A stretch of DNA of 64,000 nt from contig JBCKTV010000002.1 of NCBI GenBank assembly GCA_038925365.1, positions 5,713-69,712 on the forward strand, read 5' to 3'. This DNA comes from Gallionellaceae bacterium. GTDB lineage: Bacteria; Pseudomonadota; Gammaproteobacteria; Burkholderiales; Gallionellaceae. A program made the translations under genes and the position numbers. The notes under the pieces were generated by a model that saw only the letters and a list, made by a program, of their open reading frames with translations, was not told where the DNA came from and did not search any database. Below are positions 2,700 through 60,746 of the stretch, piece by piece (position 1 is the stretch's first letter; each line of letters begins with the position of its first letter).

Positions 2700-2747
2700 A
2701 AATATTCAATATAATCAATATGTTGCGCTTAAACGCCTATCTAAATC
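2700..2747 (+). repeat. AT-rich intergenic element with IHF-consensus core, copy A
   Basis: aaatattcaatatAATCAAtatgTTG followed by ...cctatctaaatc. Lies between the convergent genes lpxH and the nuclease gene. Confidence 0.8.
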
Positions 2748-2858
2748 TGACAGCTTGCTAGTGAAGTGTTAAAGACTATTAAGCATTTATGAGTTTGCAG
2801 TTTATAGTTGATTCTGCATCAATCAAAAAACAAGCAAAAACTTCTAATGCAGCTTGAC

Positions 2859-3491
2859 CTAATCAGTCACACACAAGCTCTCGCACGGCACACCGTCACC
2901 ATCCCCATCCAGTGATTTAACACCACAGTGCAGAAAATAAATTTTCGCTTCCTCGCAAGTTTTCATCTTACTGCACAAATATTTTTTGCCGCAAGCTGGG
3001 TTTACTGCCTTGCTTGGGTTTGTTATTGAAGGATGTGACTTGCGCCACTGTTGCGGCGAAATTGGCTGCGCGGATTGTGCCCACAAACCCCGCCGTGATT
3101 GTTTCGCCTGCTTGTTCAATTCAACGTAATGTTTGTTGGGATAAAAATTTGAATCTCCCCAAGCCATGCCCTCGCGCACCTGCTCCTCATTCACACTCTG
3201 CCCATCAATGCTGATCTCGGCGATCATGCGGCCATAGCTATCCACGGCCTTACTGTTGATCCGCACCTGCTTTTTCAACACCCTATCCACCAGCGCCTGG
3301 CGTGACTCCTTGCCGAACACCTGCGCCGATTCAGGTGCATCGATATAGGCCAGACGCACCTTGATCTTCTTGCCATCGCGCAACACCATCACGGTATCGC
3401 CATCCATCACAGCAATGACCTTGGCGTAAAATTCATCAGCATAAGCAAGATTGAAAGAAGCACTGACTAGCAACAGTAAAATCAGACGCAT
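2859..3491 (-). CDS. secreted thermonuclease (SNase-like) with C-terminal excalibur calcium-binding domain
   Basis: Signal peptide, SNase-like core (VIAVMDGDTV...RLAYIDAPE) and C-terminal DGDGDGVPCE excalibur motif. Confidence 0.8.
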   Translation of the reverse strand: MRLILLLLVSASFNLAYADEFYAKVIAVMDGDTVMVLRDGKKIKVRLAYIDAPESAQVFGKESRQALVDRVLKKQVRINSKAVDSYGRMIAEISIDGQSVNEEQVREGMAWGDSNFYPNKHYVELNKQAKQSRRGLWAQSAQPISPQQWRKSHPSITNPSKAVNPACGKKYLCSKMKTCEEAKIYFLHCGVKSLDGDGDGVPCESLCVTD

Positions 3492-3615
3492 TCAATCCTC
3501 CTTGCTTGTCAACAAACGTAGTTTATTTTCGGTCACCAAGTAGGTTCCCTTGCTATTGATTACATCAGTCAAATAACTGGATAACGACAAGCCCCTGCTC
3601 GTCTATGGCAATGAT

Positions 3616-4128
3616 TTACATCATGCTTTTGATAAAAGCCAAACACAGCAGTGCATACCCTGCCGCCAGCAGGTCATCAAACATGACACCAAATCCACCA
3701 TGCATATTTTGATCGAAATATTTGATAGGTTGTGGTTTGACGATGTCGAAGAAACGGAATAGTACGAAGGCCAGCAGTTGCCAATAGAGCCAGTTGGGAC
3801 CATCCGGTGTAAAGAACAGTACCAGCATGAAGGCCACTATCTCATCCCACACGATGCCGCCGTGATCATCCACCCCCAATGCATGGCTGGTTTTGTCGCA
3901 TATCCACACGCCTATGATGAATGCCAGAATCAGGAACAACAGAAACAAGTAGTCATTCATCAGGGGGGCGAGTAGCCAATACAGGGGGAAGGCAACTAAG
4001 GTGCCTGCGGTGCCTGGCGCTTTTGGAACGAGGCCGCTACCAAAGCCCAAAGCAAAGAAATGTGCCGGGTGGCTGAACAGCAATTTTAAATCGGGTTTCA
4101 GATAAAATTTTTCATTTGAAATGGTCAT
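3616..4128 (-). CDS. pgpA: phosphatidylglycerophosphatase A
   Basis: FFALGFGSGLVPKAPGTAGTL motif, polytopic membrane protein, overlaps the end of thiL as in many proteobacteria. Confidence 0.85.
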   Translation of the reverse strand: MTISNEKFYLKPDLKLLFSHPAHFFALGFGSGLVPKAPGTAGTLVAFPLYWLLAPLMNDYLFLLFLILAFIIGVWICDKTSHALGVDDHGGIVWDEIVAFMLVLFFTPDGPNWLYWQLLAFVLFRFFDIVKPQPIKYFDQNMHGGFGVMFDDLLAAGYALLCLAFIKSMM

Positions 4129-5065
4129 AGCCGGTTTCCTCTAGCGTCATTACACTGCCATCTGCTGCAACTATTTTACAAGCTGAACCTGCGACTATGT
4201 TGCCGATACAAGTTAGCGGCAAAGCAAGTTGCGCGGATAATTTTTTGATCTCCGCATGGCGGAGGGCTGATGCGGTGAAACATAATTCATAATCATCACC
4301 GCCTGCCAACACACATTGTTTTCCCAATGTTTGCCCAAGATACGGTTTGAGGTGTGTTGAAACGGGTAAGGCAGAAAACTGTATCTCGGCAGCGACTTTA
4401 GAGCGATCCAGTATATGTCCAAGATCGGCGAGCAAGCCATCGGAAATATCTATCGCACTATGCGCAATGCCGCACAAGGCGAGACCCAGGACAACACGAG
4501 GTACAGGACGGTGCAAGGCGGTTGCAGTGGCATGGAAACTAGCATCATCCAGTTTTAGTTTTCCCTGAAGGTGCGCCAGCGCCAACGCGGCATCGCCAAG
4601 CTTGCCCGACACCCATATTTCATCACCCACCTGTGCACCGTCTCGCCGCAATGCTTTTCCCTGCGGTACTTCGCCCATGATGGTGACACACAAATTGAGC
4701 GGGCCGCGTGTGGTATCGCCGCCGATCAACTCGACTTGATGCTCATTCGCCAGCGCAAAAAACCCGGCACTGAAGCGCTCCAGCCATGCCTCATCTACAC
4801 TGGGTAATGACAGTGCCAAAGTTGCCCAGCGTGGCTGCGCACCCATTGCTGCCATATCGGAAAGATTGACTGCCAGCACCTTGTGGCCAAGTAGATAGGG
4901 ATCGGCATCAGCAAAGAAATGCGTGCCGCTGACCAGCATGTCGGTGGAGATTGCCAGCTCCATGCCGCTGGCGACACGCACCAGCGCTGCATCATCACCC
5001 ACGCCTAAAACTGCACTGGGCGTGGCACGGGTAAAGTAACGCTGGATTAGGCTGAATTCGGACAA
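4112..5065 (-). CDS. thiL: thiamine-monophosphate kinase
   Basis: N-terminus MSEFSLIQRYF, GDDAALV and STDMLVSGTHF motifs of the AIR-synthase-like ThiL family. Confidence 0.9.
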   Translation of the reverse strand: MSEFSLIQRYFTRATPSAVLGVGDDAALVRVASGMELAISTDMLVSGTHFFADADPYLLGHKVLAVNLSDMAAMGAQPRWATLALSLPSVDEAWLERFSAGFFALANEHQVELIGGDTTRGPLNLCVTIMGEVPQGKALRRDGAQVGDEIWVSGKLGDAALALAHLQGKLKLDDASFHATATALHRPVPRVVLGLALCGIAHSAIDISDGLLADLGHILDRSKVAAEIQFSALPVSTHLKPYLGQTLGKQCVLAGGDDYELCFTASALRHAEIKKLSAQLALPLTCIGNIVAGSACKIVAADGSVMTLEETGYDHFK

Positions 5066-5102
5066 ATTTTTGGATTCCTGGGGAAAAGCACTTATACGCA
5101 GA

Positions 5103-5246
5103 TTAGAGAGTTACTGTGTCACGACACTTTTAAATCCCCCCTAGCCCCCCTTTTACAAAGTGGGGAACACTCTAACTGCTAAGAGTCTAACTGGTTCCCC
5201 ACTTTCCCAAAGGGGGGCTAGGGGGGAGAGCTAGCGAGGGGGCGTG
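5103..5246. repeat. C/G-tract palindromic REP/MITE-like element, copy 2
   Basis: Left flank tagagagttactgtgtcacgacactttt, then aaatcccccctagccccccttttacaaagtggggaa, a loop, then ttccccactttcccaaaggggggctaggggggag. Lies between nusB and thiL. Confidence 0.85.
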
Positions 5247-5248
5247 CT

Positions 5249-5719
5249 TTACTTTGCGCTCACTTCAATCGCACGCACCTGAACTGCCAGTTTATCCAGT
5301 ACGCCATTCACGAATTTATGCCCATCGGTAGAACCAAAGGTTTTTGTGAGTTCAACGGCTTCATTGATCACCACACGATAGGGAACTTCGGGGTGCCGCG
5401 ATAATTCGAACGCGCCCAGCATCAACACCGAAAACTCGATAGGGCTGAGTGTGTTCATATCGCGATCAAGATGCGGCGTGAGCACTGCAACCAGCGCCTG
5501 GTTATGTTCAACCACGCCTCTCAGCAATTGACTAAACAGCTCTGCATCGTAACGACCCAGACTTTTTTCCGCACGCGTTGTTTTTTCAATTTCCAGATGA
5601 TCGCCACCACTCATGCGCCACTGGTAAATGGCTTGCAATGCCAATTCTCGCGCACGGTGCCGCGCACTTTTGGCAGGGGACTTTACTGCTTGAACTTTTA
5701 TTCCAGCGCTCTCGGTCAT
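5249..5719 (-). CDS. nusB: transcription antitermination factor NusB
   Basis: [16 protein letters not shown]-terminal motif. Conserved ribH-nusB-thiL order. Confidence 0.9.
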
Positions 5720-6168
5720 TCCAGCGCTTTCAGCAGATTGGCCATTTCTATGGCGACCAATGCGGCTTCTGCACCTTTGACTATCATGCGTTCTTCCGCT
5801 TGTTCGTCTGTTTCGGTGGTAAGAATAGCGTTGGCGATAGGCACGCCGTTATCCAGTTGTACATCACTTATGCAGCGAGCCGATTCGTTAGACACCACTT
5901 CAAAATGAAAAGTGTCGCCGCGTATCACCGCACCCAGTGCGATCAGCGCATCAAATTTGCCGCTACCCGCCATCTGTTGCAACACCAGCGGAATTTCCAG
6001 CGCACCCGGCACTGTTACCAGCATGATGTCGTCGTCCGCAACGCCTTGTTGCGTGAGCTTTGAGCGGCACGCACCCAGCAAACCTTCGCAAATATCAGGA
6101 TTAAAACGGCTTTGCACAATGCCGATACGCAAGCCTTTACCGTTCAGATTTTTTTCCAGTTCTTTCAT
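5716..6168 (-). CDS. ribH: 6,7-dimethyl-8-ribityllumazine synthase
   Basis: [18 protein letters not shown] and HFEVV motifs. 150 aa. Confidence 0.92.
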
Positions 6169-6191: not shown

Positions 6192-7289
6192 TTATCCTTC
6201 GCTATGTACATATCCTACGACTTCCAAACCAAAACCGGCCATGCTGGGCAACTTGCGCGGGGTGCCTATCAGTCGCATTTTACCGACATTCAGATCACGC
6301 AGTATTTGGGCGCCGATGCCGTAACTGCGAGGATCCCAGCGTGCTGCATGGTGGGTCTCCGGCGTAGCCGCTGCACGTGCAAGCAAATCCTGCGATGTTT
6401 CATTGTGATGCAACATCACCATCACGCCGACAGCTGACTGTTTTATTTTGAGTAGCGCATCGTGCACGCTGGTTGAATTTGGATAGCTCGCTTGCTCGAG
6501 GAAATCTAGCACCGACAGTGGCTCATGCACGCGCACCAGTGTTTCGACATTAGCTTGGATCTTGCCTTTAACCAGCGCCAGATGGGTGCATTGCGTAGTC
6601 TTGTCCACATAGGTACGTAGCTCCAGCTCGCCATAAGCGGTCTGCACATTACGCGTGGCAACACACTCCACCAGCTTTTCTGTTTGACTGCGATGCTCAA
6701 TCAGGTCGGCTATGGTACCGATTTTTAGATTGTGTGTTTTTGCATAAATAATCAGATCAGGCAGACGCGCCATCTCGCCGTCTTCTTTCAATATTTCGCA
6801 AATAACCGAAGCCGGTGTCAACCCGGCAAGTGCTGCCAAATCACAACCCGCTTCGGTGTGACCGGCACGCACCAGCACGCCGCCGTTTTTTGCACGTAAA
6901 GGGAAGATGTGGCCGGGCATCACAATATCGGAAGGTTTTGCATTTTTATCCGCCGCCACCAGCACGGTGCGTGCACGGTCGGCAGCCGAAATGCCGGTGG
7001 TCACTCCGGTTGATGCTTCTATCGACAGGGTAAAGTTGGTTGCCAGTGCTAAACCGTTTTCACGCACCATCAGCGGCAGGTCAATCTGCTTGCAATGCGC
7101 TTCGGTCAAGGTTAGGCAAATCAGGCCACGGCCATGTTTGGCCATGAAATTTATTTTTTCGGCAGTGACAAATTCGGCGGCAAACACCAGATCGCCTTCG
7201 TTCTCGCGATCTTCCTCGTCTATCAGCACCACCATGCGCCCCTGGCGCATTTCTTCAATTATTTCCAATACTGGTGCTATGTCTGTCAT
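6192..7289 (-). CDS. ribBA: bifunctional 3,4-dihydroxy-2-butanone-4-phosphate synthase / GTP cyclohydrolase II-like protein
   Basis: DHBP synthase motifs DEEDRENEGDL and GHTEA, followed by a C-terminal GCHII-like domain. 365 aa. Confidence 0.9.
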   Translation of the reverse strand: MTDIAPVLEIIEEMRQGRMVVLIDEEDRENEGDLVFAAEFVTAEKINFMAKHGRGLICLTLTEAHCKQIDLPLMVRENGLALATNFTLSIEASTGVTTGISAADRARTVLVAADKNAKPSDIVMPGHIFPLRAKNGGVLVRAGHTEAGCDLAALAGLTPASVICEILKEDGEMARLPDLIIYAKTHNLKIGTIADLIEHRSQTEKLVECVATRNVQTAYGELELRTYVDKTTQCTHLALVKGKIQANVETLVRVHEPLSVLDFLEQASYPNSTSVHDALLKIKQSAVGVMVMLHHNETSQDLLARAAATPETHHAARWDPRSYGIGAQILRDLNVGKMRLIGTPRKLPSMAGFGLEVVGYVHSEG

Positions 7290-7442
7290 TTCTTGCTTAC
7301 CTTTTATCTTTCAACTATTTTTATTAATACTGCAATTTTACCATTAGCAATTCAAGTGACATCATGCCCGATTAACTATTCGCTCTAAACCCTCTCTCTG
7401 ACAGAGGTGGAACATAGCGAGGGGACCTAGCAGCCTATCAAT

Positions 7443-7490
7443 CTTAGACGGCATGCTTATCATAACATATTGATTATATTGAATATAATT
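7443..7490 (-). repeat. AT-rich intergenic element with IHF-consensus core, copy B
   Basis: The reverse complement reads attatattcaatatAATCAAtatgTTAtgataagcatgccgtctaag. Lies between the histidine kinase gene and ribBA. Confidence 0.8.
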
Positions 7491-7537
7491 ACAGGTGGCT
7501 GGTGCATTAAGGTGAGTAGACCATGAGATAACTGCCT

Positions 7538-10033
<2,496 letters not shown>

Positions 10034-10248
10034 ATACAGCAGCGCAAATACCGTGGTGATCAGGCAAATATAGACCAGCAGGCGATGCGCGGCGTGTTGG
10101 CGCTGGTCTGGCTCCGCAACGCTGGGCGTGAACCAGTTGACCCACTGGTCGAGCCGGTTGAGAGTGATTTGCAGGGGTCGGTTAATTGCAGTTCTCCGAA
10201 TCAGTTTATTTGAATTGAAAGTGTGACATAAACAGCCAAGGCAAAGAT

Positions 10249-10310
10249 AAATTATTCAATATAATCAATATGTTACTGTTTTATTTAATCATATGACTAT
10301 ACCTATCTAG
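10249..10310 (+). repeat. AT-rich intergenic element with IHF-consensus core, copy C
   Basis: aaattattcaatatAATCAAtatgTTA ... acctatctag. Confidence 0.8.
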
Positions 10311-10333
10311 GAGTGCATCTAAAAACATTAAGC

Positions 10334-12127
10334 TTAATTCCGCTCCAACAGATTGCGCACCCATTTTATAACCCAGGAAACCATGCCCAAAATAAACAGC
10401 AAAGTCCATTGCACCGTATTCGTCCACATTGGCATTTCTTTACGCCAAGGCAAGCCTTTGCGGTAACGACTATCATCCACCCAGCGCCAGATTTTGAACA
10501 GATAGGGTTCGTTTAGGGGCCAGATGCGGCAATAGTTTGTATGTACGCCGCTGGCGTCGAGGATGCTATTCACGGCGCGGCGCGCGGCTTCGTTGGCGCC
10601 TTCCATAGTGGCTAAGTCGGTGTTGGTTTTGACGTAGTCACCTGCCAAAAACAAGTTGTGGATGTGGGTATAGGCGTTGGGACGTAGGGTCCAGGAGTTG
10701 ACCAGATTGACCATTAACGGTTGGGTGTTGATTTTTTTGGTGGTGGCCGGATCATGTGGCGGTTGAAATTGAATGTCGGGGTCGAGAAACCAGGAGTGTA
10801 AATTTTCGTCCGTGAGAGGTTCTTGACCATCAACATTCAGGCTGCGTTTTAATTGCGCCCAAATTTCTTCACCAATTTCCTGTAGCGTACATTCCTTAGC
10901 GGATTTATTGTAGAGGATGCCGGGTTTGTCCCAATCGGAAATGTCGACGGATATGATGCCTTGTACAGTGCCGTCACCATAGCCGTTGAGATTGATGTGT
11001 TGCCAGAATTGTGTTTGCGAGATGGAAGTGAGCGCCCAAGGTGCGTCGACATAGATAATGTGCCCATGCACCAAGGGTACGTCTTTTTTCAAATAGAACT
11101 GCGCTCCATTCATCCAATCGACGTAGATAGGTGTTTGCTGTGGACAGGCTTTAGTTTCCGGGTATAAATCCGGGTAGCGACCTAGTAGCTGTATGTTGGC
11201 TAAGCACGGATCGGCTAGTAACATGTCTGCATTGATAAGTGCAGCCATGCGTTCAACAGGGACGGCCATCAGATAATAGTCGGCAGTGATTTGTTCTATT
11301 TTTCCATTGCGAACGATGCTGACGCCGGTGATATTTTCACCCACACAATGGATGGCGCTGACAGAGGCATTTAAGTGGTAGCGCACGCCTTTGGATTCGA
11401 GATAATGGAGCCAAGGGTCGATCCACACATCGTTGGTCGGGCCATTGAGTACAAGGTCGCTGCTTTTACCGGGCTCCAACATGCTGAACAACAGCAGCAC
11501 TAGGATGTGGCCACCGGTGCGGGTACTGGCGTGCTGTGCTTGAGCCGCTACCAAGGTGCGCGTTAAGCCATTGCCGAGCAATTTTTGATAAGCCTCCGAG
11601 CGCGTTGCAGCGCCGATGAATTCCCACCAACCGACTTGCTCGTATTCGGCTAAGCGACGGGTGCTGCAACTGGTAATAATTTGCCACACGCGCTCCGCAA
11701 AATATTCGAACTCGTCGTCGGGAATACCGGTGTCGGTGTCAAACAAGCCTTTCAAGATGAGCAGCAATTCCGCCAGGTTTTTGGGAAAACCAGCGAGGAT
11801 GACAATGGGTTTTTTGTCGAAACGCGCCATGGCAATGCGCGTGGTACCCACCAGATTGTCGAAGACCGTTTTGCCGCCCGCCACCGGGATTTCTTTCATG
11901 GTAGCGGTGATGTGTCGGTAAAAAGCCGGGAAGAAGCGGAACCCATGTTCGCCGGGGAGCGGGAGACGACCATCGGTCGCAGAGTCGGGAACCGGCATGC
12001 TGCGTGCCTTGCCACCGGGGATGCTTAAACCCTCAAACACTTCAACTTGAAAGCCGCGCCGGATTAATTCGTGCGCGGCGCTCATGCCGGAAATCCCACC
12101 ACCTAGAATAACGACTTTTTTGCTCAT
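10334..12127 (-). CDS. FAD-dependent oxidoreductase (amine oxidase / phytoene desaturase superfamily) with C-terminal TM helix
   Basis: Dinucleotide-binding motif KKVVILGGGISGMSAAHEL. I moved the start to the ATG at 12127, which is preceded by AAGAGGAG; the ORF-track start at 12223 has no such support. Confidence 0.7.
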   Translation of the reverse strand: MSKKVVILGGGISGMSAAHELIRRGFQVEVFEGLSIPGGKARSMPVPDSATDGRLPLPGEHGFRFFPAFYRHITATMKEIPVAGGKTVFDNLVGTTRIAMARFDKKPIVILAGFPKNLAELLLILKGLFDTDTGIPDDEFEYFAERVWQIITSCSTRRLAEYEQVGWWEFIGAATRSEAYQKLLGNGLTRTLVAAQAQHASTRTGGHILVLLLFSMLEPGKSSDLVLNGPTNDVWIDPWLHYLESKGVRYHLNASVSAIHCVGENITGVSIVRNGKIEQITADYYLMAVPVERMAALINADMLLADPCLANIQLLGRYPDLYPETKACPQQTPIYVDWMNGAQFYLKKDVPLVHGHIIYVDAPWALTSISQTQFWQHINLNGYGDGTVQGIISVDISDWDKPGILYNKSAKECTLQEIGEEIWAQLKRSLNVDGQEPLTDENLHSWFLDPDIQFQPPHDPATTKKINTQPLMVNLVNSWTLRPNAYTHIHNLFLAGDYVKTNTDLATMEGANEAARRAVNSILDASGVHTNYCRIWPLNEPYLFKIWRWVDDSRYRKGLPWRKEMPMWTNTVQWTLLFILGMVSWVIKWVRNLLERN

Positions 12128-12332
12128 GCTCGCTCCTCTTAAATAATGAATCCAGCGCTGAAAGTCCTTTTGTTGTGCGACTAGACTTTGCCAGTAAGCT
12201 CTTATTCTGCCAACTGAGCGCATGCTACTCGCAACTCATTGATGAGTAAATAAATTGCTGCTTGAGATTTCGGGAGATCTACTCACATCTTTGATACAGC
12301 ATCACAAGCTTGCGCTTGTGTTCGTGACACAC

Positions 12333-12380
12333 GTCCGACACCTCGGTTCTTGTCCTATGCGAAGCAGAGCGTAGTGTAGG
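12333..12380 (-). repeat. third repeat family (CCTACACTACGC...CATAGGACAAGAACC unit), copy 1
   Basis: The reverse complement reads cctacactacgctctgcttcgcataggacaagaaccgaggtgtcggac, near-identical to 47857-47909. Confidence 0.75.
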
Positions 12381-12408
12381 AGACTGCTAGTGTTTATCTG
12401 TAATTATG

Positions 12409-13002
12409 CTAGCTGTCCGCAGCCATCATCCGCTCAACATAGCGCGCAATCATATCGATTTCCAGGTTCACTCTGGAATCAACGTGCAAATCCTTTAGCG
12501 TTGTTTCCTTAAGCGTGTGCGGAATCAGGTTCACTTCAAAAATCGAGCCTTCAACCTTGTTCACCGTCAGGCTCACACCATTGATGGTGATTGAGCCCTT
12601 GGCTGCAATATATTTCGCCAATTCTTTCGGCGCACGCACGCTGAGCTTCCAGCTTTCGCCCAGATTGATAAAATCCAGCACTACACCCACCCCATCCACA
12701 TGCCCGCTCACCAGATGGCCGCCCAGCCTGTCAGCCAGACGCAGCGCCTTTTCCAGATTGACATGCGCTCCCTGTTGTTCAAGACCTACGGTACAGTGCA
12801 ATGTTTCTTTCGATACCTCAACTGTGAAGCTGTTGCCTTCAAGCTTGATCGCCGTGAGGCAGACACCATTCACCGCAATACTGTCGCCCAGTTGCACGTC
12901 TGACATATCGAGTGCGTTGGTCGCGATGCGCAGGCGTAGGCCGCCGGCTCGATCCTGCTTGTCGGCAATAGTCCCCACATCCGCAATGATTCCAGTAAAC
13001 AT
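12409..13002 (-). CDS. ribE: riboflavin synthase (alpha chain)
   Basis: MFTGII N-terminus and the internal duplication typical of riboflavin synthase (GDSIAVNGVCLT / GSITINGVSLT). Confidence 0.9.
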   Translation of the reverse strand: MFTGIIADVGTIADKQDRAGGLRLRIATNALDMSDVQLGDSIAVNGVCLTAIKLEGNSFTVEVSKETLHCTVGLEQQGAHVNLEKALRLADRLGGHLVSGHVDGVGVVLDFINLGESWKLSVRAPKELAKYIAAKGSITINGVSLTVNKVEGSIFEVNLIPHTLKETTLKDLHVDSRVNLEIDMIARYVERMMAADS

Positions 13003-20048: not shown

Positions 20049-20057
20049 AGGACCCCT

Positions 20058-20182
20058 CTAAAAATCCAAACTCCGTCGCGATACTGCGTTACTCATGCAA
20101 TTTTATCGCTTACATATAATACATATGCTGCGCGTTAAAATTACATTCGCGCCTTGTCTCGCTTAGGATTTTGGATTTTTAG
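20058..20182. repeat. nested imperfect palindrome filling the fbpA-fbpB intergenic region
   Basis: Outer arms ctaaaaatccaaa (20058-20070) and tttggatttttag (20170-20182). Inner arms around catataatacatatg. Confidence 0.7.
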
Positions 20183-21937
20183 ATGCGCCCTAATTTAAAC
20201 CCTTCTTCCATAAAGACCGCAAAAGTGTCGTTTGGCACTTTTGCGTTTTTTCGTTCCTCTTTGCTGAACGTCTGGCGTTTATTGGGCGGCTGGAATTTAC
20301 TAGACGGCTGGCGACTAGCTGCCTTTGCTATCGCCCTGCTTGTCGTCGTTCCGCTTATGGTGGTGCTGAGTTCCTTGCTTTCCCCAGAACAGGAAATCTG
20401 GCGTCACCTCGTCGAACACGTACTACCAGGGCTGCTGTCCAACACCCTCAAAATGACGCTAGGCGTAGCCGTCGGTGTAATTTTGCTGGGTGTGAGTCTC
20501 GCCTGGTTGACGGCAGTATGCGAATTCCCCGGCAGGAAATTTTTCTCCTGGGCGCTGCTACTGCCACTGGCCGTGCCCGCCTATGTCACTGCTTTCGTCT
20601 TCATCTCCTGGCTGGATTTCACCGGGCCAGTGCAGACCCTGCTACGAGCAAGCTTCGGTAGCAGCGCGTGGTTTCCCAGCATCCGTTCCGGTGGCGGCGT
20701 GGTGCTGGTGATGACGCTAGCACTCTACCCCTATGTCTATCTGCTCGCCCGCAACGCCTTTCTCACCCAGGGACGCAGCGTCATGGAAGCCGCTCAATCT
20801 CTCGGCTACAGCCGCAGCAAGGGATTTTTTCGGGTGGCGTTGCCGATGGCTAGGCCATGGATTATGGGTGGCTTGCTGCTGGCCTTGATGGAAACCCTTT
20901 CAGATTTTGGCACCGTTGCAGTATTCAACTATGACACCTTCACCACCGCCATCTACAAGACCTGGTTCGGCATGTTTTCCCTGAGTGGCGCTTCACAGCT
21001 TGCTTCGATTCTGGTTTTACTGGTATTCGTCTTGATTTTGTTGGAACAGGCTTCCCGTTCGCGGCTGCGTTACACCCAGTCGGGTAAACACTCCCAGTCT
21101 GAACGCATTAAGCTGGGCGGATGGCGCGGCTTGCTTGCCGCCGGTTTCGCCACAACGGTACTGCTGACCGCATTTGCGCTACCCGTCGGCCAGCTAGTAG
21201 TGTGGGCGGCCAGCGTATTCACTCAGGATTTTGACCAACGCTATCTGAGTTTTCTGTGGCATTCCCTGTCTCTGGGCGCTATCGCTGCCGTCCTTACCGT
21301 GATGTGCGCCTTGATCCTGGCCTATGCCCAGCGCCGCCACACCGATGCATGGACGCGATTCGCAGTACGTATCGCCTGCCTTGGCTACGCCGTGCCAGGA
21401 CCGGTGCTGGCGGTGGGCATTATCATTCCACTGGCGTGGCTGGATAACCAACTCATACACCTCAGCAAAACTCTGTTCGACCACAACCCCGGCCTGTTGC
21501 TGCAAGGAACACTGCTAGTGATGATCCCCGCCTACCTTACCCGTTTCCTCGCAGTCGGCTATAGTCCCGTGGAAACCGCCATGCAGCGCATTACGCGTAA
21601 TCTCGACGAGGCCTCCCGCACTTTCGGCGTTACTGGCCTGCAAATGTTGCGCCGTGTGCATCTGCCCATATTGCGCGGCGGTTTGTTTACGGCTGCGGCA
21701 CTGGTGTTCGTTGATGTAATGAAAGAAATGCCTATCACCCTGATGACCCGTCCCTTCGGTTGGGACACCCTGGCGGTGCGTATTTTCGAAATGACCTCAG
21801 AAGGGGAATGGGAGCGTGCAGCCCTGCCCGCCGTGGCGTTGGTACTCGCCGGATTGCTACCGATCGCACTACTGGTCAGATATACGGAAGCTGTCAGTAA
21901 AAAAACTGTCGCTGATCAAACCCATCTGACAGTTTGA
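20183..21937 (+). CDS. fbpB: iron(III) ABC transporter permease (two fused permease domains)
   Basis: About 12 TM segments and a duplicated BPD-transporter core. The start codon is uncertain, because the ATG at 20183 sits at the edge of the palindrome. Confidence 0.85.
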   Translation: MRPNLNPSSIKTAKVSFGTFAFFRSSLLNVWRLLGGWNLLDGWRLAAFAIALLVVVPLMVVLSSLLSPEQEIWRHLVEHVLPGLLSNTLKMTLGVAVGVILLGVSLAWLTAVCEFPGRKFFSWALLLPLAVPAYVTAFVFISWLDFTGPVQTLLRASFGSSAWFPSIRSGGGVVLVMTLALYPYVYLLARNAFLTQGRSVMEAAQSLGYSRSKGFFRVALPMARPWIMGGLLLALMETLSDFGTVAVFNYDTFTTAIYKTWFGMFSLSGASQLASILVLLVFVLILLEQASRSRLRYTQSGKHSQSERIKLGGWRGLLAAGFATTVLLTAFALPVGQLVVWAASVFTQDFDQRYLSFLWHSLSLGAIAAVLTVMCALILAYAQRRHTDAWTRFAVRIACLGYAVPGPVLAVGIIIPLAWLDNQLIHLSKTLFDHNPGLLLQGTLLVMIPAYLTRFLAVGYSPVETAMQRITRNLDEASRTFGVTGLQMLRRVHLPILRGGLFTAAALVFVDVMKEMPITLMTRPFGWDTLAVRIFEMTSEGEWERAALPAVALVLAGLLPIALLVRYTEAVSKKTVADQTHLTV

Positions 21938-21984
21938 CTTAGATGTTATTTTACGTAAGTACTTGATTATATTTAATATTTTAT
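21937..21984 (-). repeat. AT-rich intergenic element with IHF-consensus core, copy D
   Basis: The reverse complement reads aaaatattaaatatAATCAAgtacTTAcgtaaaataacatctaagtc. It starts at the fbpB stop codon. Confidence 0.8.
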
Positions 21985-22030
21985 AAGTGAGGATTATGCC
22001 TCATACTGACAACTGACAATCGGAAACCGA

Positions 22031-23173
22031 ATGATGCCACTCCTGCAATGCCCTCTTCCCGTTCATGGTGCAATCCAGCTTGAACTGAAAGACATTTCCT
22101 ACTCCTACAATGCTCAACCAATCGTGCGCAAACTGTCGCTGCGTCTGAATCAGGGCGACATAGGCTGTTTGCTCGGCCCCTCCGGCTGCGGCAAAACCAC
22201 GGTATTGCGAACCATTGCGGGTTTCGAAAACATCGCGGAGGGCAGCATCATGCTTGCAGGCGAAACGGTAAGCCGCGTAGGCTACACCCTGCCTCCGGAA
22301 AAGCGCCGAGTCGGCATGGTGTTCCAGGACCAAGCACTATTTCCCCACCTGAGCGTGACGCAGAACATTGCATTTGGGCTCAAAGACTGGGACAAAGCCG
22401 AGCGTCAGGACAGAGTTGAAAGTCTGTTGAAAATGGTGGGCTTGCCCAATACCGGTAACAAATTTCCGCACCAACTTTCCGGCGGCCAGCAGCAACGGGT
22501 AGCACTGGCCAGAGCCTTAGCCCCCCGCCCGTCGCTACTCCTGCTGGACGAACCATTTTCTAGCTTGGACGTAAATCTGCGCGAGCGTATCGGTCAGGAA
22601 ATGCGTGAAATTCTTAAGACACAGGGCACCACAGCGCTGTTGGTGACTCACGACCAGTTCGAGGCCTTCGCCATTGCCGACAAAATCGGGGTAATGAACG
22701 AGGGTGAAATTCAGCAATGGGATAGCGCCTACAATCTCTACCACCGCCCCGCCAACCGCTTCGTCGCCGACTTTGTCGGCGAAGGAGTATTGATACCAGC
22801 TATGGTACTCAACGAAAGCCAAGTAAAAACAGAACTGGGCACAATCTCCGGTGAGGTTCCCCTCGAATGCAAAGCCGGTTGCGAGGAATGCAAGGCGGGT
22901 TGCCTGTTAGATGTTTTGCTACGCCCCGACGACATTCTTCACGAAGATGCCAGCACATTACAGGCGGAAGTTGCCAAGAAGGCTTTCCGGGGTGCAGATA
23001 TCTTGTACACCCTGCTACTCCCCAGCGGGCGTAAAGTGCTGTCGCTGGTGCCAAGTCACCACAACCACGCGATAGGCGAAAAAATCGGCATCCGGCTGGA
23101 GGTAGATCATCTAGTCACGTTCAGCAAAAGCCAGCACTCAGGACTTGATAAGCAGAATTATTGCGACAAATAA
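22031..23173 (+). CDS. fbpC: iron(III) ABC transporter ATP-binding protein
   Basis: Walker [10 protein letters not shown], signature [14 protein letters not shown], Walker B LLLLDEP, C-terminal TOBE-like domain. Confidence 0.9.
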
Positions 23174-23217
23174 AATATTAAATATAATCAGTATGTTACG
23201 TAATATTTCATCTAAGC
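23172..23217 (+). repeat. AT-rich intergenic element with IHF-consensus core, copy E
   Basis: aaaatattaaatatAATCAGtatgTTAcgtaatatttcatctaagc. It begins inside the fbpC stop codon. Confidence 0.8.
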
Positions 23218-25352: not shown

Positions 25353-25384
25353 AGGAATAAATTCAGTAAAACGTTTAGGCGTAA

Positions 25385-25416
25385 GGCGTTATCATAACAA
25401 CATATTCTAATATTTA
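25385..25416 (-). repeat. partial copy (F) of the AT-rich element, core deleted
   Basis: The reverse complement reads taaatattagaatatgttgttatgataacgcc. It keeps both flanks but lacks CAATATAATC. Confidence 0.5.
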
Positions 25417-25426
25417 CCGACACACC

Positions 25427-29991: not shown

Positions 29992-30088
29992 ATCCCCCCT
30001 AGCCCCCCTTTTTTAAAGTGGGGAACAAACCAAGCTTTGAGAGGTGAGAGTTCCCCACTTTGGAAAAGGGGGGCTAGGGGGGATTTTC
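29990..30088. repeat. C/G-tract palindromic REP/MITE-like element, copy 3
   Basis: aaatcccccctagccccccttttttaaagtggggaa, a loop, then ttccccactttggaaaaggggggctaggggggattttc. Confidence 0.9.
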
Positions 30089-31168: not shown

Positions 31169-31207
31169 AAGCTGCATGATCCTAAAAAAATTAATTAAGT
31201 AAACTGT

Positions 31208-31250
31208 AAATATTCAATATAATCAATTAGTTGAATATATTGAATATTTA
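31208..31250 (+). repeat. AT-rich intergenic element, copy G (inverted double copy)
   Basis: aaatattcaatatAATCAAttagTTGaatatattgaatattta. The AT-rich half is present as a 17-bp inverted pair. Confidence 0.8.
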
Positions 31251-38493: not shown

Positions 38494-38650
38494 CTTCACA
38501 CTTTGAAAAGGTGGACGAAGGGGGAGAGCGAAGCGAGAGGGCGTAATTTTCGTACTACAGCTATTTTCTGTCACCGCCATAAATCCCCCCTAGCCCCCCT
38601 TTTTTAAAGTGGGGAATAATGATGAAAGCCAAGTACCTGAGTAGTTACGG
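38494..38650. repeat. C/G-tract palindromic REP/MITE-like element, copy 4 (one degenerate unit plus one intact unit)
   Basis: Degenerate unit cttcacactttgaaaaggtggacgaagggggagagcgaagcgag, then aaatcccccctagccccccttttttaaagtggggaataatgatgaaag. Confidence 0.8.
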
Positions 38651-39406: not shown

Positions 39407-39889
39407 TTATATTCCAATTTTTTTAAATGCAGACTTGCGACTGTAGCGCCGCAACCAATACTCAGTCTGGGCAAATAAGTCAGCCAGTTTTTCTGCACTT
39501 ATCTCGGCATTGTGTTGATACAAAAATGTATCGAGCGTCTGCAAAAAATCGTGCCAGCGCGTATGATCCTGCGGCTTAAGTTGCTCAGGAATTTTATTTG
39601 CACTCAGTCTTTTTACACCCAGCCCATGACGCAATTCTAACGCAAGCAGCAGCACCGTTTCCTGCGGCGTGTTTTCCTTGTCATGCAGTTGTTTGTGCAA
39701 TGTACGCATTCGACGGATTGCACGATAGGCTGGTAATTTGTATTTCCACAACACAAACAAAACCACAGCAGCTATCACCAAACCAGTGATCAGCAGAGCT
39801 ATCCATAGCCATCCATCTGAAGCAGCCAGTACCGGTGCTGCGGGTTCAATAATATCGGCGAGGCCGCTATTCGTGTCACTCATAATCAT
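39407..39889 (-). CDS. DUF4381 domain protein (MoxR/Bat operon component)
   Basis: Single TM helix (WLWIALLITGLVIAAVVLFVLW) followed by KYKLPAYRAIRRM, typical of DUF4381. Confidence 0.7.
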   Translation of the reverse strand: MIMSDTNSGLADIIEPAAPVLAASDGWLWIALLITGLVIAAVVLFVLWKYKLPAYRAIRRMRTLHKQLHDKENTPQETVLLLALELRHGLGVKRLSANKIPEQLKPQDHTRWHDFLQTLDTFLYQHNAEISAEKLADLFAQTEYWLRRYSRKSAFKKIGI

Positions 39890-39913
39890 TTACCCTCAAG
39901 AAAAATTTATATT
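39867..39913. repeat. 47-bp direct repeat, left copy, flanking the Fic cassette
   Basis: ctattcgtgtcactcataatcatttaccctcaagaaaaatttatatt, identical to 41089-41135 except for one base. Confidence 0.9.
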
Positions 39914-39932
39914 AATCATCTTCAGTAGCCTG

Positions 39933-41088: not shown

Positions 41089-41135
41089 CTATTCGTGTCA
41101 CTCATAACCATTTACCCTCAAGAAAAATTTATATT
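41089..41135. repeat. 47-bp direct repeat, right copy, flanking the Fic cassette
   Basis: ctattcgtgtcactcataaccatttaccctcaagaaaaatttatatt. It contains the DUF58 stop codon. Confidence 0.9.
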
Positions 41136-42084
41136 CGTCGGCTTCCGTGCTGCAACGATGCAAGCGCACCCCGATGCGCTCAAACAACACTTTCTGTTTT
41201 GCATGCAGTGCCTCTGCTTGCCGATTGAACAAGCTGCGCACACTCTGGCTGCCAGTGTCCAGCCAGCGCAGTTTGCCGCTCGCCACATCAAAAAAACGCA
41301 TCATGCCAACATTGGGCAGTGTCTCTTCCGCACTATCCATTACCTGCAAGGCGAGCACATCATGGTGCGATGCCAAACGCATCAACACAGGTAAATCCTG
41401 CTCATGTAATTGTGCAAAATCGCTGATCAGCACCAGTCTGGAGCCGCGCGGCAACTGTGCATCCAGCTCGCGCAGCATCTCGGCAAACGTGCACGCTTGT
41501 GCTGCGGGTTCATTCTGCAATGGCGGGCAAGGAGCGATAGCGGCGCGCACCAGCCGCGTTGCACCCTCCTCGCCGTTCAAACACGGCAAGCTAAAGCCGC
41601 CTGATTGCCACAGGGTGCCGCCGATGCAGGTATTGCTCGGCATTGCGGCAAAAGCAAAAATTGCAGCAATGCGTGCAGCGAGGGTGACTTTGAGTTGCTT
41701 GCGCGTACCGAAACGCATGCTAGCACCGCGATCCACCACGATATGCAAGGGCGGCTGATGTTCTTCACGGTACACCTTTAGATAGGGTTTTCCTGTACGA
41801 GCAGTGGTGCGCCAGTCCATGTCGCGCATTTCGTCACCCGCTTGATAGGGTCGAACCTCTTCAAAATCCAATCCGCGTCCTAGATAAATAGAGCGAAAAT
41901 TTCCCGCTTGCCGGTAGTGCACATCTCTGGGCTGCAACTGCGCAAGATTCATCGCCTGCACCTGTTGAATGATGCCGTCGAGATCGGCGTCGCTTAATAG
42001 CGGCGCATGCAGTTGCGCTTGCTGTATGGCAGCTTGCGCGGTAAACAGGCGCGATAGCCAAGTACGAAGATTGCTTAACATCAT
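41098..42084 (-). CDS. DUF58 domain protein (MoxR operon partner)
   Basis: VRPYQAGDEMRDMDWRTTARTGKPYLKVY motif typical of DUF58. Confidence 0.85.
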   Translation of the reverse strand: MMLSNLRTWLSRLFTAQAAIQQAQLHAPLLSDADLDGIIQQVQAMNLAQLQPRDVHYRQAGNFRSIYLGRGLDFEEVRPYQAGDEMRDMDWRTTARTGKPYLKVYREEHQPPLHIVVDRGASMRFGTRKQLKVTLAARIAAIFAFAAMPSNTCIGGTLWQSGGFSLPCLNGEEGATRLVRAAIAPCPPLQNEPAAQACTFAEMLRELDAQLPRGSRLVLISDFAQLHEQDLPVLMRLASHHDVLALQVMDSAEETLPNVGMMRFFDVASGKLRWLDTGSQSVRSLFNRQAEALHAKQKVLFERIGVRLHRCSTEADEYKFFLRVNGYE

Positions 42085-42097
42085 AATATTTTGAAAA

Positions 42098-42225
42098 TTG
42101 AGAGTTACTTAATTCACGACAGTTTTAAATCCCCCCTAGCCCCCCTTTTTCAAAGTGGGGAATATTCAGGCTGTAAGGGTCTAGTTGGTTCCCCACTTTG
42201 TAAAAGGGGGTAGGGGGATTTTCTT
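42098..42225. repeat. C/G-tract palindromic REP/MITE-like element, copy 5
   Basis: ttgagagttacttaattcacgacagtttt, then aaatcccccctagccccctttttcaaagtggggaa, a loop, then ttccccactttgtaaaagggggtagggggattttc. Confidence 0.9.
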
Positions 42226-43193: not shown

Positions 43194-43223
43194 ATGGATA
43201 AGTTGGAATCTAGCTAAAATAAT

Positions 43224-43271
43224 AAAAATTCAATATAATCAAACAGTTGTGTTTAAATCCATGTCTAAGCC
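43224..43271 (+). repeat. AT-rich intergenic element with IHF-consensus core, copy I
   Basis: aaaaattcaatatAATCAAacagTTGtgtttaaatccatgtctaagcc. Confidence 0.8.
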
Positions 43272-47780: not shown

Positions 47781-47909
47781 AGGAATTTCTATGCTACTTT
47801 TTGGAGTATCCCGAGTTTTTTAGTTATAGTCAATACAACTGCTTTATCTAAAGCCTCCTACACTACGCTCTGCTTCGCATAGGACAAGAACCCTTGCAGG
47901 GTGCCGGAC
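47781..47909 (-). repeat. conserved leader/repeat upstream of the MHYT kinase operon (includes a third-family unit at 47857-47909)
   Basis: Shares aggaatttc, agtatcccgagtttt, agtcaa and cctac(ac)tacgc...cataggaNaagaaccc.tg.agg.tgccgg with 51592-51697. Confidence 0.75.
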
Positions 47910-47960
47910 TTCACTCACAAAGCATTAATTTAAAAATGAATTGAAATTTACACTTACAGT

Positions 47961-48016
47961 AAAACATTCAATATAATCAAGCAGATACAAATTAAATCAA
48001 ATTCGGATAGGCTGCT
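47961..48016 (+). repeat. AT-rich intergenic element, copy J
   Basis: aaaacattcaatatAATCAAgcagata...ggataggctgct. It ends at the stop codon of the MBL gene. Confidence 0.75.
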
Positions 48017-51827: not shown

Positions 51828-51877
51828 ATATAATATTCAATATAATCAAATAGTTACGTTAACAGCCATGCCTAAGT
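51828..51877 (+). repeat. AT-rich intergenic element with IHF-consensus core, copy K
   Basis: ataatattcaatatAATCAAatagTTAcgttaacagccatgcctaagtc. Confidence 0.8.
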
Positions 51878-51898
51878 CCGCTACGCTGCCAGAAGAAG

Positions 51899-51952
51899 TT
51901 AACCTTGTTTTTTCATTAACAGATCGCGTTTCCGCTGCATACCCAACATGAT
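51899..51952. repeat. 54-bp imperfect direct repeat (relic copy of the MFS gene 3' end) flanking the BrnTA cassette
   Basis: ttaaccttgttttttcattaacagatcgcgtttccgctgcatacccaacatgat. 47 of 54 positions are identical to 52648-52701. Confidence 0.85.
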
Positions 51953-52585: not shown

Positions 52586-52647
52586 TGGCCTACCTGAGTC
52601 AATACTACAGACCGAAAGATTTCTGCGTATTTGTTAAGCCGAAAAAA

Positions 52648-52701
52648 TTAACCCTGCTTTAGTATTATCAGATCGCGTTTCCGCTGCATTCCCAACATGA
52701 T
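52648..52701. repeat. 54-bp direct repeat, functional copy (3' end of the MFS gene)
   Basis: ttaaccctgctttagtattatcagatcgcgtttccgctgcattcccaacatgat. Confidence 0.85.
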
Positions 52702-54276: not shown

Positions 54277-54400
54277 TTTGAGTTTTACTTAATTCGCGAC
54301 ACTTTTAAATCCCCCCTAGCCCCCCTTTTTCAAAGTAGGGAACTAACCAAACCTTTGAAGGCGGCGTGTTCCCCACTTTGCAAAAGGGGGGAGGGGGATT
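54277..54400. repeat. C/G-tract palindromic REP/MITE-like element, copy 6
   Basis: tttgagttttacttaattcgcgacactttt, then aaatcccccctagccccctttttcaaagtagggaa, a loop, then ttccccactttgcaaaaggggggagggggatt. Confidence 0.9.
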
Positions 54401-54424
54401 CGCGTACTTTATCTGCCGCTTCTG

Positions 54425-56569: not shown

Positions 56570-56612
56570 ATATTGTAAATCATTGATTATATTGAAGTTT
56601 ATTGAAGTTTAT
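56570..56612 (-). repeat. AT-rich intergenic element with IHF-consensus core, copy L (with a 10-bp tandem duplication)
   Basis: The reverse complement reads aaacttcaataaacttcaatatAATCAAtgatTTAcaata. Confidence 0.7.
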
Positions 56613-56615
56613 TGG

Positions 56616-57296: not shown

Positions 57297-57305
57297 TTTA
57301 TCATT

Positions 57306-57354
57306 ATTGAGAATTACTTAATTTGTGACACGTTTAAATCCCCCTGGGGGGATT
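57306..57354. repeat. C/G-tract REP/MITE-like element, copy 7 (internally deleted)
   Basis: ttgagaattacttaatttgtgacacgttt, then aaatccccctggggggattt. Confidence 0.75.
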
Positions 57355-59797: not shown

Positions 59798-59809
59798 GGA
59801 GTAATTCAA

Positions 59810-60130
59810 ATGAGCAGAACGATTAATCCGCAGGAACTGAAAACCCTGCTTGAAACTACAGATGTGAAAATTATCGATGTGCGGCGCAAGGATGATTACG
59901 CTGCGGACAACAGCGCAATTCCAGGTGCAACTTGGTTCGACCCGGCAAATATTGACGGATGGTGCGACACCATGTCGACAGATAAAGATCTGGTACTTTA
60001 TTGCGTGCGTGGCGGCGCAGTGAGTAACTCGGTGCTGGACACCTTGCAAGCCAAAGGGGTGAAAGCCCGTTATATTGAAGGCGGCATCAGCGCATGGAAA
60101 GACGCGGGTGGCACTGTGGTGCCGAAATAA
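59810..60130 (+). CDS. single-domain rhodanese-like sulfurtransferase
   Basis: 106 aa, IIDVRR and active-site loop YCVRGGAVS. Confidence 0.8.
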   Translation: MSRTINPQELKTLLETTDVKIIDVRRKDDYAADNSAIPGATWFDPANIDGWCDTMSTDKDLVLYCVRGGAVSNSVLDTLQAKGVKARYIEGGISAWKDAGGTVVPK

Positions 60131-60133
60131 TAA

Positions 60134-60168
60134 TTTAAACACAACTGCTTGATTATATTTAATATTTT
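60134..60168 (-). repeat. AT-rich intergenic element with IHF-consensus core, copy M
   Basis: The reverse complement reads aaaatattaaatatAATCAAgcagTTGtgtttaaa. Confidence 0.8.
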
Positions 60169-60218
60169 ATATGTTCAAGCCGAATAATGAAGTCAGAAAA
60201 TTCTTGGAGAACTTAGTA

Positions 60219-60686
60219 ATGATGAATAAACATAATACTTGGATTGCTGCCGTTGCGGCCTTGCTGCTCACTGCACAAGCTTATGCGGCGGATGTAACAA
60301 TCGACGATGCTTGGGCTCGTGCCACAGCACCTGGGCAGGAGAATGGATCCGTTGGCCTGGTGATCACCAGCGCAAAAGATGCCCGCCTGATTGCAGTTAC
60401 AACACCCGCTGCTAAATTTGCCGAGATACATACCATGACCATGGAAAATGGTGTGATGAAGATGCGCCAATTGGAAGACTTGCCTTTACCTGCAAAGCAG
60501 CCTGTCAAGCTTGGGCCGGGTGGTGATCATCTGATGCTTTTTAACCTTAAAAAGCCATTGAAGGCCGGTGAAGAAATTCCACTGACTTTAACCATACAAT
60601 TTTCCGATAAACGTAGCGAGAAAATCAACATCAAAGCACAGATCAAGCCGCTCACAGCAGCACAAGACAATCACCACGCTCATTAG
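60219..60686 (+). CDS. periplasmic copper chaperone PCu(A)C (DUF461)
   Basis: Start set at MMNKHNTW, preceded by GGAGA. Signal peptide. Cu-binding pattern HTMTMENGVMKM...GGDHLML. Confidence 0.8.
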   Translation: MMNKHNTWIAAVAALLLTAQAYAADVTIDDAWARATAPGQENGSVGLVITSAKDARLIAVTTPAAKFAEIHTMTMENGVMKMRQLEDLPLPAKQPVKLGPGGDHLMLFNLKKPLKAGEEIPLTLTIQFSDKRSEKINIKAQIKPLTAAQDNHHAH

Positions 60687-60718
60687 ACTTATAGAGAAAT
60701 TAAAATTACTACTAATGC

Positions 60719-60746
60719 TTTAATATTCAATATAATCAACGTATTG
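60719..60746 (+). repeat. AT-rich intergenic element with IHF-consensus core, copy N
   Basis: ttaatattcaatatAATCAAcgtaTTG. Confidence 0.8.

Follow-up and report, generated by a model that had tools for sequence, protein, structure and literature searches.

Why should one short AT-rich sequence recur, nearly unchanged, in the gaps between genes of a Gallionellaceae bacterium? The question is raised by a 64,000-nucleotide stretch of DNA (here called the window; GenBank assembly GCA_038925365.1, contig JBCKTV010000002.1, positions 5,713 to 69,712 of the forward strand), in which a first-pass annotation had read the element as a dispersed binding repeat for integration host factor (IHF). Here, we report the anatomy, contexts and distribution of this motif. 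Our preferred reading, held with moderate confidence and based on sequence comparison, is that the motif is a stand-alone family of ~28-bp canonical, high-affinity IHF (or very IHF-like) bending sites (footprint, ~34 bp), and that such sites are dispersed at about 1 per 5 kb in the gene-free gaps of a Gallionellaceae-like betaproteobacterial clade.

The motif and its fit to the IHF consensus

The window was searched for ATTCAATATAATCAANNNGTT (up to three mismatches), with the chance level taken from 100 shuffles. Fourteen near-perfect copies were found against 0.07 expected, and 0 of the 100 shuffles reached 14. Matches start at 2704, 10254, 23177, 31212, 43228, 47966, 51835 and 60725 on the plus strand (eight copies) and at 7464, 21957, 31225, 36439, 56577 and 60143 on the minus strand (six copies), those at 31212 and 31225 forming an overlapping inverted pair. 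The copy list of the first-pass annotation (13 full copies and one partial) agrees with these positions within a few bases, and the core-deleted copy that it placed at ~25385 is genuine, the minus strand at ~25371 to 25417 reading AAATATT-AGAAT-ATGTTGTTATGATAAC...CCTAAAC. When mismatches were tallied over 21 specified positions (AAATATTCAATATAATCAANNNNTT), two copies had none, eight had one, three had two, one had three and none had four; from five to six mismatches upward, the matches were background or cases in which the quasi-palindromic core overlaps itself. Mismatch counts thus fall into two separate groups, and the copies are a discrete family, not the upper end of a continuum of AT-rich sites.

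Alignment of 116 copies fixed the ends of the element, which the first-pass annotation had left to such an alignment. The unit is ~28 bp long, aAAAw-ATTCAATATAATCAA-nnn(g)TTAc, with high information from −5 to +22 of the core and ~0 bits on either side, i.e., no flanks conserved family-wide. Within the window, resemblance between copies is limited to about −10 to +45. The second block reported earlier for several copies, CATnyCTAAG, was recovered in seven (or as a near variant), but it is lineage specific and missing from the family-wide logo; the extension to which it belongs was seen only in the window's lineage and in Gallionellaceae SLM_LV1_0830-N11. Comparison with Rfam, also suggested at first pass, gave no family in the window at gathering thresholds.

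Canonical IHF sites contain WATCAA, a TTR four bp further 3′, two bp (usually AA) that lie nine bp apart and take the proline intercalation and, in some sites, a tract of 4 to 6 A's in the 5′ half (PMC1874591). The motif holds all four elements in register, with AAAA at −5 to −2, the steps A4A5 and A13A14, A9-ATCAA, and T19T20R21. Scanned with the template AAAN6AAN3WATCAAN4TTR (up to one mismatch), the window gave a fit in 11 of 14 copies, against 0.16 expected, and at no other site. Exact WATCAANNNNTTR, earlier said to occur in 11 of 13 cores, is carried by 10 of 14 copies. The window total is 15 such sites, where 3.0 would be expected, and the 5 that lie elsewhere than in the motif do not rise above background.

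A less biased logo was built from 47 copies other than those used to retrieve the loci. WATCAA was conserved at A9 (47/47), A10 (46/47), T11 (47/47), C12 (47/47), A13 (46/47) and A14 (44/47), and TTR at T19 (43/47), T20 (46/47) and R21 (44/47). The two ApA steps lie exactly 9 bp apart (A4A5, 47/47 and 39/47; A13A14, 46/47 and 44/47), and A was found in 40, 39, 42 and 31 of the 47 copies at the four A-tract positions from −5 to −2. The weakest positions, N15, N16 and N18 (0.2 to 0.4 bits), fall inside the NNNN of the IHF consensus, and the least variable ones are mostly IHF positions (A9 to A13, T19 and T20), together with T2, A4 and T6.

If the sites are read as proposed, the IHF heterodimer would recognize WATCAA and TTR by direct readout and the A-tract, through its narrow minor groove, by indirect readout; it would place its two prolines in the ApA steps that lie 9 bp from each other and fold the DNA into a U-turn. 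The sites would then serve as architectural punctuation between transcription units, in nucleoid folding or in topological or transcriptional insulation, with any effects on adjacent promoters or terminators being secondary. Because bending acts on duplex DNA, it would be independent of gene orientation, and a duplex architectural role would explain why copies occur in all types of gap, convergent ones included. On the sequence evidence, IHF or a very similar bender is the most likely reader of the motif; a cellular role in nucleoid folding or insulation is speculative.

Genomic context and the embedded TATAAT

Gene context was taken from a simple codon-usage gene caller for the window and the family loci (L numbers below). 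As the first-pass annotation had claimed, all window copies except one are intergenic, the exception (36439) lying in frame in a 630-amino-acid (aa) open reading frame (ORF) with a VWA domain. Its gene names were likewise matched by Pfam annotation of the flanking ORFs (metallophosphoesterase, SNase, ABC permease and ATPase, dihydroorotate dehydrogenase, SoxA, MBL-fold genes and PCuAC). The three convergent pairs that it listed (metallophosphoesterase/SNase nuclease, dihydroorotate dehydrogenase/SoxA and PCuAC/unassigned ORF) hold up, and a fourth, ABC ATPase/unassigned ORF, also carries a copy.

The motif occupies about one-third of the larger intergenic gaps in the window, including 4 of 5 convergent gaps, 0 to 1 of 5 divergent gaps and 8 of 28 tandem gaps of >40 nt. 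Over all loci, 16 contexts were convergent and 11 divergent, roughly in proportion to how much intergenic DNA each class comprises, and orientation relative to tandem genes was unbiased (33 versus 32). Flanking gene ends were 3′ ends in 18 of 26 cases in the window, with 97 3′ ends versus 87 5′ ends over all loci. Genes often end inside the motif: where the A-tract side faces a gene 3′ end, the stop codon was ≤12 nt away in 23 of 49 cases, and on the other side the stop codon is the TAA within GTAAC or the TGA within TTGATT. Three single genes in the window are each bracketed by a minus-strand copy and, after it, a plus-strand one, both with the A-tract side toward the gene, namely, those for a hybrid histidine kinase (7462 to 10276), an ABC ATPase (21955 to 23199) and PCuAC (60141 to 60747).

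These contexts bear on the reading of the motif as a conserved sigma-70 promoter module, with TATAAT (TATATT on the other strand) driving transcripts, short or leaderless, to one side or to both. Nearly all copies have the perfect −10 hexamer, and several in related genomes lie upstream of a clear start codon at a distance of 5 to 25 nt, as in the cases of enolase, fabD and homoserine dehydrogenase. However, the −35 location (core positions −17 to −12) holds ≤0.2 bits, a −35-like hexamer accompanies 2 of the 14 window copies, and promoter-like matches were not above shuffles, so the TATAAT is probably no regular promoter. Orientation to the downstream gene is random, at the 33 versus 32 given above, in the window copies occupy 4 of 5 convergent gaps but 0 to 1 of 5 divergent gaps, some copies lie inside genes, and nothing downstream of +22 is conserved family-wide. 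As a general explanation, a promoter is largely excluded, and we regard it as very unlikely; the first-pass statement that the element is not simply a promoter is borne out by the absent −35, the unbiased orientation and the copies in convergent gaps. Sigma-54/IHF looping was also considered and rejected, with GG-N10-GC sites found near copies 4 times against ~13 expected by chance.

Distribution, turnover and rival readings

One genome per species was scanned for the exact motif, which was multicopy within a single Gallionellaceae-like (iron-oxidizer) clade, in the genomes of at least 10 species. Many copies were found in GFS_5653, GL46_Down_concoct_214, GL52_DN_metabinner_5 and WB02no11_48_11 (Gallionellaceae-like or "Betaproteobacteria" metagenome-assembled genomes), Gallionellales 39-52-133, SLM_LV1_0830-N11, a Caribou Creek bin and others; outside the clade, only single, unrelated exact matches occurred among the matches listed. 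Coding DNA of the motif-bearing genomes is ~66 to 72% identical to the window, so the shared 28-mer is not a matter of recent common descent of neutral sequence. Density was 14 per 64 kb in the window (~1 per 4.6 kb) and ~1 extra copy per 6 kb in the other loci. Viral contigs gave 33 exact matches, each of them single, on contigs of 23 to 41% GC and with unrelated flanks, so they are chance matches, and plasmids gave only matches of E ≥ 0.2 from unrelated taxa. No tRNA or tmRNA was found in the window, and literature searches returned no description of the motif or of uptake sequences in Gallionellaceae.

Some 8 to 9 of ~110 copies are genic overall, in the four stop-free frames (1 of 14 in the window). 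The copy in lpd (L010, GFS_5653; …VKIIQYNQIVIAAGS…) aligns gap-free to E. coli Lpd (4jdr; …KTVINFDNAIIAAGS…), and the copy in rsmB (L043, GL46; …KLKIQYNQHVINIL…) aligns gap-free to E. coli RsmB (1sqf; …RLQKAYPEQWQSIV…). The encoded replacements are conservative, IQYNQIV for INFDNAI in lpd and KIQYNQHV for QKAYPEQW in rsmB. Given these gap-free alignments, both copies were written by substitution and not inserted. Between species, the motif may be kept as an island of identity in an otherwise unalignable spacer (L077/L092, 22/22 bases; L060/L080; L040/L090; L022/L069), or one of two orthologous gaps may be without it (L045 versus L020 and L012 versus L073; also lpd in L046). At one orthologous gene end it is flipped (L040, ~250, minus strand; L097, ~3084, plus strand), which implies independent gain, conversion or local inversion. 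Gene order also differs around some copies. In L060 and L080, the motif directly follows ribE, with ribBA next in L060; in the window (6192 to 13002), amine-oxidase and hybrid kinase genes lie between ribE and ribBA, with the motif at both kinase flanks and another repeat (M, described below) after ribE. Rearrangement breakpoints thus coincide with repeats.

Copies written by substitution are difficult to reconcile with spread by transposition, as a miniature mobile element such as a MITE (miniature inverted-repeat transposable element), a Correia-like element, a REP or a REPIN. Such an element would account for the longer common flanks in the window and SLM_LV1_0830-N11 (the CATGyCTAAG…GGCTGCTAGG extension), for the adjacent M repeat with its inverted CTAGCAGCC ends and for the stop codons that the motif often supplies, as insertions do. 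Conservation family-wide, though, covers only 28 bp. A single copy forms no hairpin (minimum free energy of the consensus 30-mer, 0 kcal/mol; z of −1.1 to +0.7 for the window copies tested), only the inverted double folds, and there are no terminal inverted repeats at the motif ends. The best 3-nt target duplication was seen in 14 of 117 copies, not above the permuted control (maximum, 12 to 20). A MITE is largely excluded as a general explanation, although some copies in the window's lineage were clearly carried along in longer repeats, and we consider spread of the motif by transposition extremely improbable.

Several observations weigh against IHF architecture as the full account. The IHF elements cover ~15 to 17 positions, yet T2 and T6 are invariant and A0, T1, A7 and T8 are strongly conserved, so that the left half of the motif, AAAATATTCAATAT (A0 T1 T2... 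T6 A7 T8), shows more conservation than IHF requires. Copies are near-identical with no tail of weaker sites, as is more typical of drive repeats than of nucleoid-protein sites. Near-perfect copies stand in conserved lpd and rsmB, genes in which the use of an architectural site is not evident, and neighboring copies over all loci are inverted more often than direct (33 versus 16), an excess that is unexplained. Genes for IHF or HU were not seen in the ~0.5 Mb sampled, a sample that is uninformative on this point. The left-half conservation and the origin of copies by substitution in situ mean that some added constraint or drive must act. IHF alone leaves the left-half bases, the uniformity of copies, the genic copies and the inverted excess unexplained, which leaves room for drive or for a second reader.

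Drive, in the sense of a nontranspositional molecular process that keeps the motif uniform and seeds it even in conserved genes, is doubtful but could take two forms. In the strongest, the motif may be an AT-rich DNA uptake sequence family of Gallionellaceae, the third such family, with IHF-shaped bendability selected by the uptake or recombination machinery; in a weaker form, an IHF-site family may have spread through short-patch gene conversion. An uptake sequence proper would be a substrate of the competence machinery, spread by biased uptake and recombination, and its likeness to IHF sites would be a coincidence or reflect a need for bendability. Much of the pattern resembles the known DUS of Neisseriaceae and USS of Pasteurellaceae, which are shared by a family, free in orientation, turned over between species and present in coding DNA by substitution (PMC2817400). 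The motif is likewise common to many related species, with near-identical copies, mismatch counts in two separate groups and both orientations about equally frequent; its lpd and rsmB copies arose by substitution with conservative replacements, as described for USS/DUS (PMC2817400), sites were gained, lost and flipped at orthologous positions, and no related viral or plasmid matches were found. It is, however, ~5-fold less dense than DUS/USS and far more intergenic (~1 per 4.6 to 6 kb and ~10% genic versus ~1 per kb and 35 to 65% in ORFs; PMC2817400), and it is AT-rich. Its conservation profile is IHF shaped, the least variable positions being IHF contacts and the variable ones the NNNN, which an uptake receptor does not predict. 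Uptake specificity is known only in Neisseriaceae and Pasteurellaceae (PMC1939737), and literature searches gave nothing on competence in this clade. We judge an uptake sequence unlikely.

The left half of the motif bears more directly on another clade-specific protein, a regulator or a domesticated recombinase or transposase, that would read the ATATTCAATAT dyad or the direct repeat of TCAA at 9 bp, either alone or with IHF as a cofactor. The invariant T2 and T6 and the other left-half bases would suit such a protein, as would the ATATT-C-AATAT dyad and the TCAAT/TCAA repeated at 9 bp, both read directly from the sequence. The mostly inverted arrangement of adjacent copies, the three window genes bracketed by minus and plus copies and the ribE-ribBA synteny broken exactly at motif copies fit as well, and a recombinase site paired with an IHF site would resemble transposon ends and att sites. 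On the other side, the window contains no candidate gene associated with the copies, inspection showed no dif-like dyad (11-6-11), the pair-orientation bias is modest, and cut-and-paste events are at odds with genic copies that arose by substitution. A second reader of this kind seems improbable to us.

Known sites of similar kind were rejected on inspection. For Xer dif/pdif (28 bp, 11-6-11), the arms AAAATATTCAA and CAAATAGTTAC match at 3 of 11 positions as inverted repeats; there is only a chance match of TTATATTGAAT to the XerD arm, at 9 of 11 positions. Resemblance to the Fur box, ARG box and Ter site is partial and due to chance, and copy number and contexts are incompatible with all three.

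IHF-type bending sites remain the preferred reading, and the motif can be set beside earlier examples. The lambda H′ IHF site has the same four consensus elements in the same order and spacing (PMC1874591). H′ serves regulation or recombination as a single site, in contrast to a motif that is repeated at ~1 per 5 kb, is conserved across species as a 28-mer and has in addition the invariant T2 and T6 and the embedded TATAAT. The RIB/RIP (BIME-1) elements of E. coli are, like the motif, dispersed, extragenic, multicopy IHF-consensus sites. They are reported to lie often at the 3′ ends of transcription units and to have no known function. In RIB/RIP, the IHF site stands between inverted REP palindromes; in the motif, flanks of 0 bits and the lack of a hairpin leave the IHF-like site itself as the repeat unit, which, unlike RIB/RIP, also occurs in coding DNA via substitution. 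REP/BIME are known to recruit IHF (PMC3479197).

The Correia elements of Neisseria (CREE/NEMIS, 155-bp form) are, again like the motif, dispersed intergenic repeats of betaproteobacteria with an IHF site and promoter-like hexamers. Correia elements are MITEs of 105 to 155 bp with 26-bp terminal inverted repeats and target duplication; the motif is without inverted termini or target duplication and lies only sometimes, and only in the window's lineage, inside longer repeats. IHF binds the Correia site in vitro (PMC2229807). Judged by its sequence, the motif belongs to neither the RIB/RIP nor the Correia family, as it has no REP palindromes, terminal inverted repeats or target-site duplication and its genic copies are free of indels. 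The first-pass interpretation therefore stands in part: its IHF reading was strengthened, and its RIP/RIB and Correia analogy fails as a statement of membership.

To our knowledge, no agreed function has emerged for dispersed IHF-site repeats in the 30 years since they were first described, and they have always been embedded in REP clusters or MITEs, which confounds their interpretation. Here, the IHF-type site would itself be the repeat, offering a clean system for asking what genome-wide bending sites do (domain boundaries, convergent-transcription insulation or recombination) and what force keeps ~28 bp nearly invariant. Were uptake bias the true cause, sequence-specific DNA uptake would extend past the two known families. 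The motif is also a lineage marker for an environmentally important iron-cycling clade and a caveat for promoter prediction, since the perfect TATAAT inside it probably does not act as a promoter.

Window copies and neighboring repeats

Copy A (2699 to 2726, plus strand) lies where the metallophosphoesterase and SNase nuclease genes converge, in the gap between them, and its lineage-specific extension runs to ~2745 (…CTATCTAAA). Copy B (7462 to 7489, minus strand) lies between the 3′ end of the hybrid histidine kinase gene and the 5′ end of ribBA, with an extension to ~7443 (CATGCCGTCTAAG, then GGCTGCTAGG), and copy C (10249 to 10276, plus strand) lies between the 3′ end of the amine-oxidase gene and the 5′ end of the histidine kinase gene; B and C are mutually inverted and flank the kinase gene. 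Copy D (21955 to 21982, minus strand) separates the ABC permease and ABC ATPase genes, its extension, CTTAG… (21938), beginning directly after the permease stop codon. Copy E (23172 to 23199, plus strand; extension to 23216) is in a convergent gap, and its A-tract contains the ATPase stop codon TAA. The decayed copy (25371 to 25417, minus strand), from which ~9 nt of core is deleted, occupies the divergent gap between pmbA and darP.

The overlapping inverted double (31207 to 31250; 31207 to 31234 on the plus strand and 31223 to 31250 on the minus strand) lies in the convergent gap between pyrD and soxA and is a palindrome with 19-bp arms (DNA fold, −13 kcal/mol; z = −8.25). Of the hairpins around it, the left one terminates on the minus strand and the right one in both directions, so the pyrD transcript probably crosses the inverted pair, which would then not lie in an untranscribed zone between two terminators. 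The sole genic copy in the window (36437 to 36464, minus strand) is read as …NKIFNIIKH… (…ANKIFNIIKHIQ…) in the 630-aa ORF. This ORF (35661 to 37553, minus strand) consists of a VWA-plus-transmembrane part and a C-terminal part, with the motif translated in frame exactly at the junction (…LLYANKIFNIIKHIQYSLL…), and may represent two Bat-like genes fused via a former intergenic copy.

The next copies, all on the plus strand, lie between the 3′ end of a GGDEF/EAL gene and the 5′ end of a MoxR ATPase gene (43223 to 43250; extension to 43269, CATGTCTAAG), between the 5′ end of an MHYT histidine kinase gene and the 3′ end of an MBL-fold gene (47961 to 47988; preceded by the M repeat at 47852 to 47915) and between the 5′ end of a hybrid kinase gene and the 3′ end of an MqsA-like antitoxin gene (51830 to 51857; extension to 51876, CATGCCTAAG). 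A minus-strand copy (56575 to 56602) stands between the 3′ end of an ArsR/rhodanese gene and the 5′ end of an MBL-fold gene, and another (60141 to 60168) nearly fills the 43-nt gap between a rhodanese gene and the PCuAC gene. The last (60720 to 60747, plus strand) follows PCuAC in a convergent gap and has the opposite orientation to the copy at 60141.

On the reverse strand of the extension, five copies read CTTAG-n(0-5)-ATG followed by 5 to 6 sense codons and ending at the TGA of TTGATT. These mini-ORFs (21938 to 21962, 23192 to 23216, 43245 to 43269, 51852 to 51876 and 7443 to 7467) encode the peptides MLFYVST*, MKYYVTY*, MDLNTTV*, MAVNVTI* and MLIITY*. They have no Shine-Dalgarno sequence, and are therefore probably a by-product of constant spacing; they are absent in other genomes.

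The M repeat (CTAGCAGCCTCCTACACTACGCTCTGCTTCGCATAGGACAAGAACCCCTGCAGGGTG…) is present in the window at 47852 to 47915 (plus strand) and 12345 to 12390 (minus strand), the copies being 98 to 100% identical to each other, and also in L023, L028 and L044. It also occurs in Gallionellaceae SLM_LV1_0830-N11 and often adjoins the motif, and its end, GGCTGCTAGG, recurs ~45 to 55 nt downstream of several window copies of the motif.

A second, unrelated, GC-rich palindromic family of ~110 nt (arms TAAATCCCCCCTAGCCCCCCTTTTT.AAAGTGGGGAAC and the inverse, 23 to 33 nt apart) occupies seven other intergenic gaps, at 1733 to 1872, 5102 to 5230, 29960 to 30086, 38566 to 38648, 42097 to 42224, 54277 to 54404 and 57306 to 57344. 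It looks REPIN- or MITE-like, and together with the motif it fills about one-half of the sizeable gaps in the window. Between solute-binding and permease genes lies a 137-nt element (20055 to 20191) whose ends are inverted (CTAAAAATCCAAA … TTTGGATTTTTAG) and which has 96% identity to a copy from the genome of another species (L023, 3217 to 3353 and 6135 to 6301); given this cross-species identity, it is likely a MITE.

In L097 (GFS_5653), a long tandem heptamer array, (GGCGTGA/GGCGTTA/GGCGCTA)n, at ~5620 to 5770 adjoins a motif copy and is missing in the orthologous gap of GL52. Two pairs of ~60-nt direct repeats in the window (39867 to 39926 and 41089 to 41148, 90% identity; 51892 to 51952 and 52641 to 52701, 85% identity) lie upstream of neighboring minus-strand genes and may be duplicated regulatory or leader regions.

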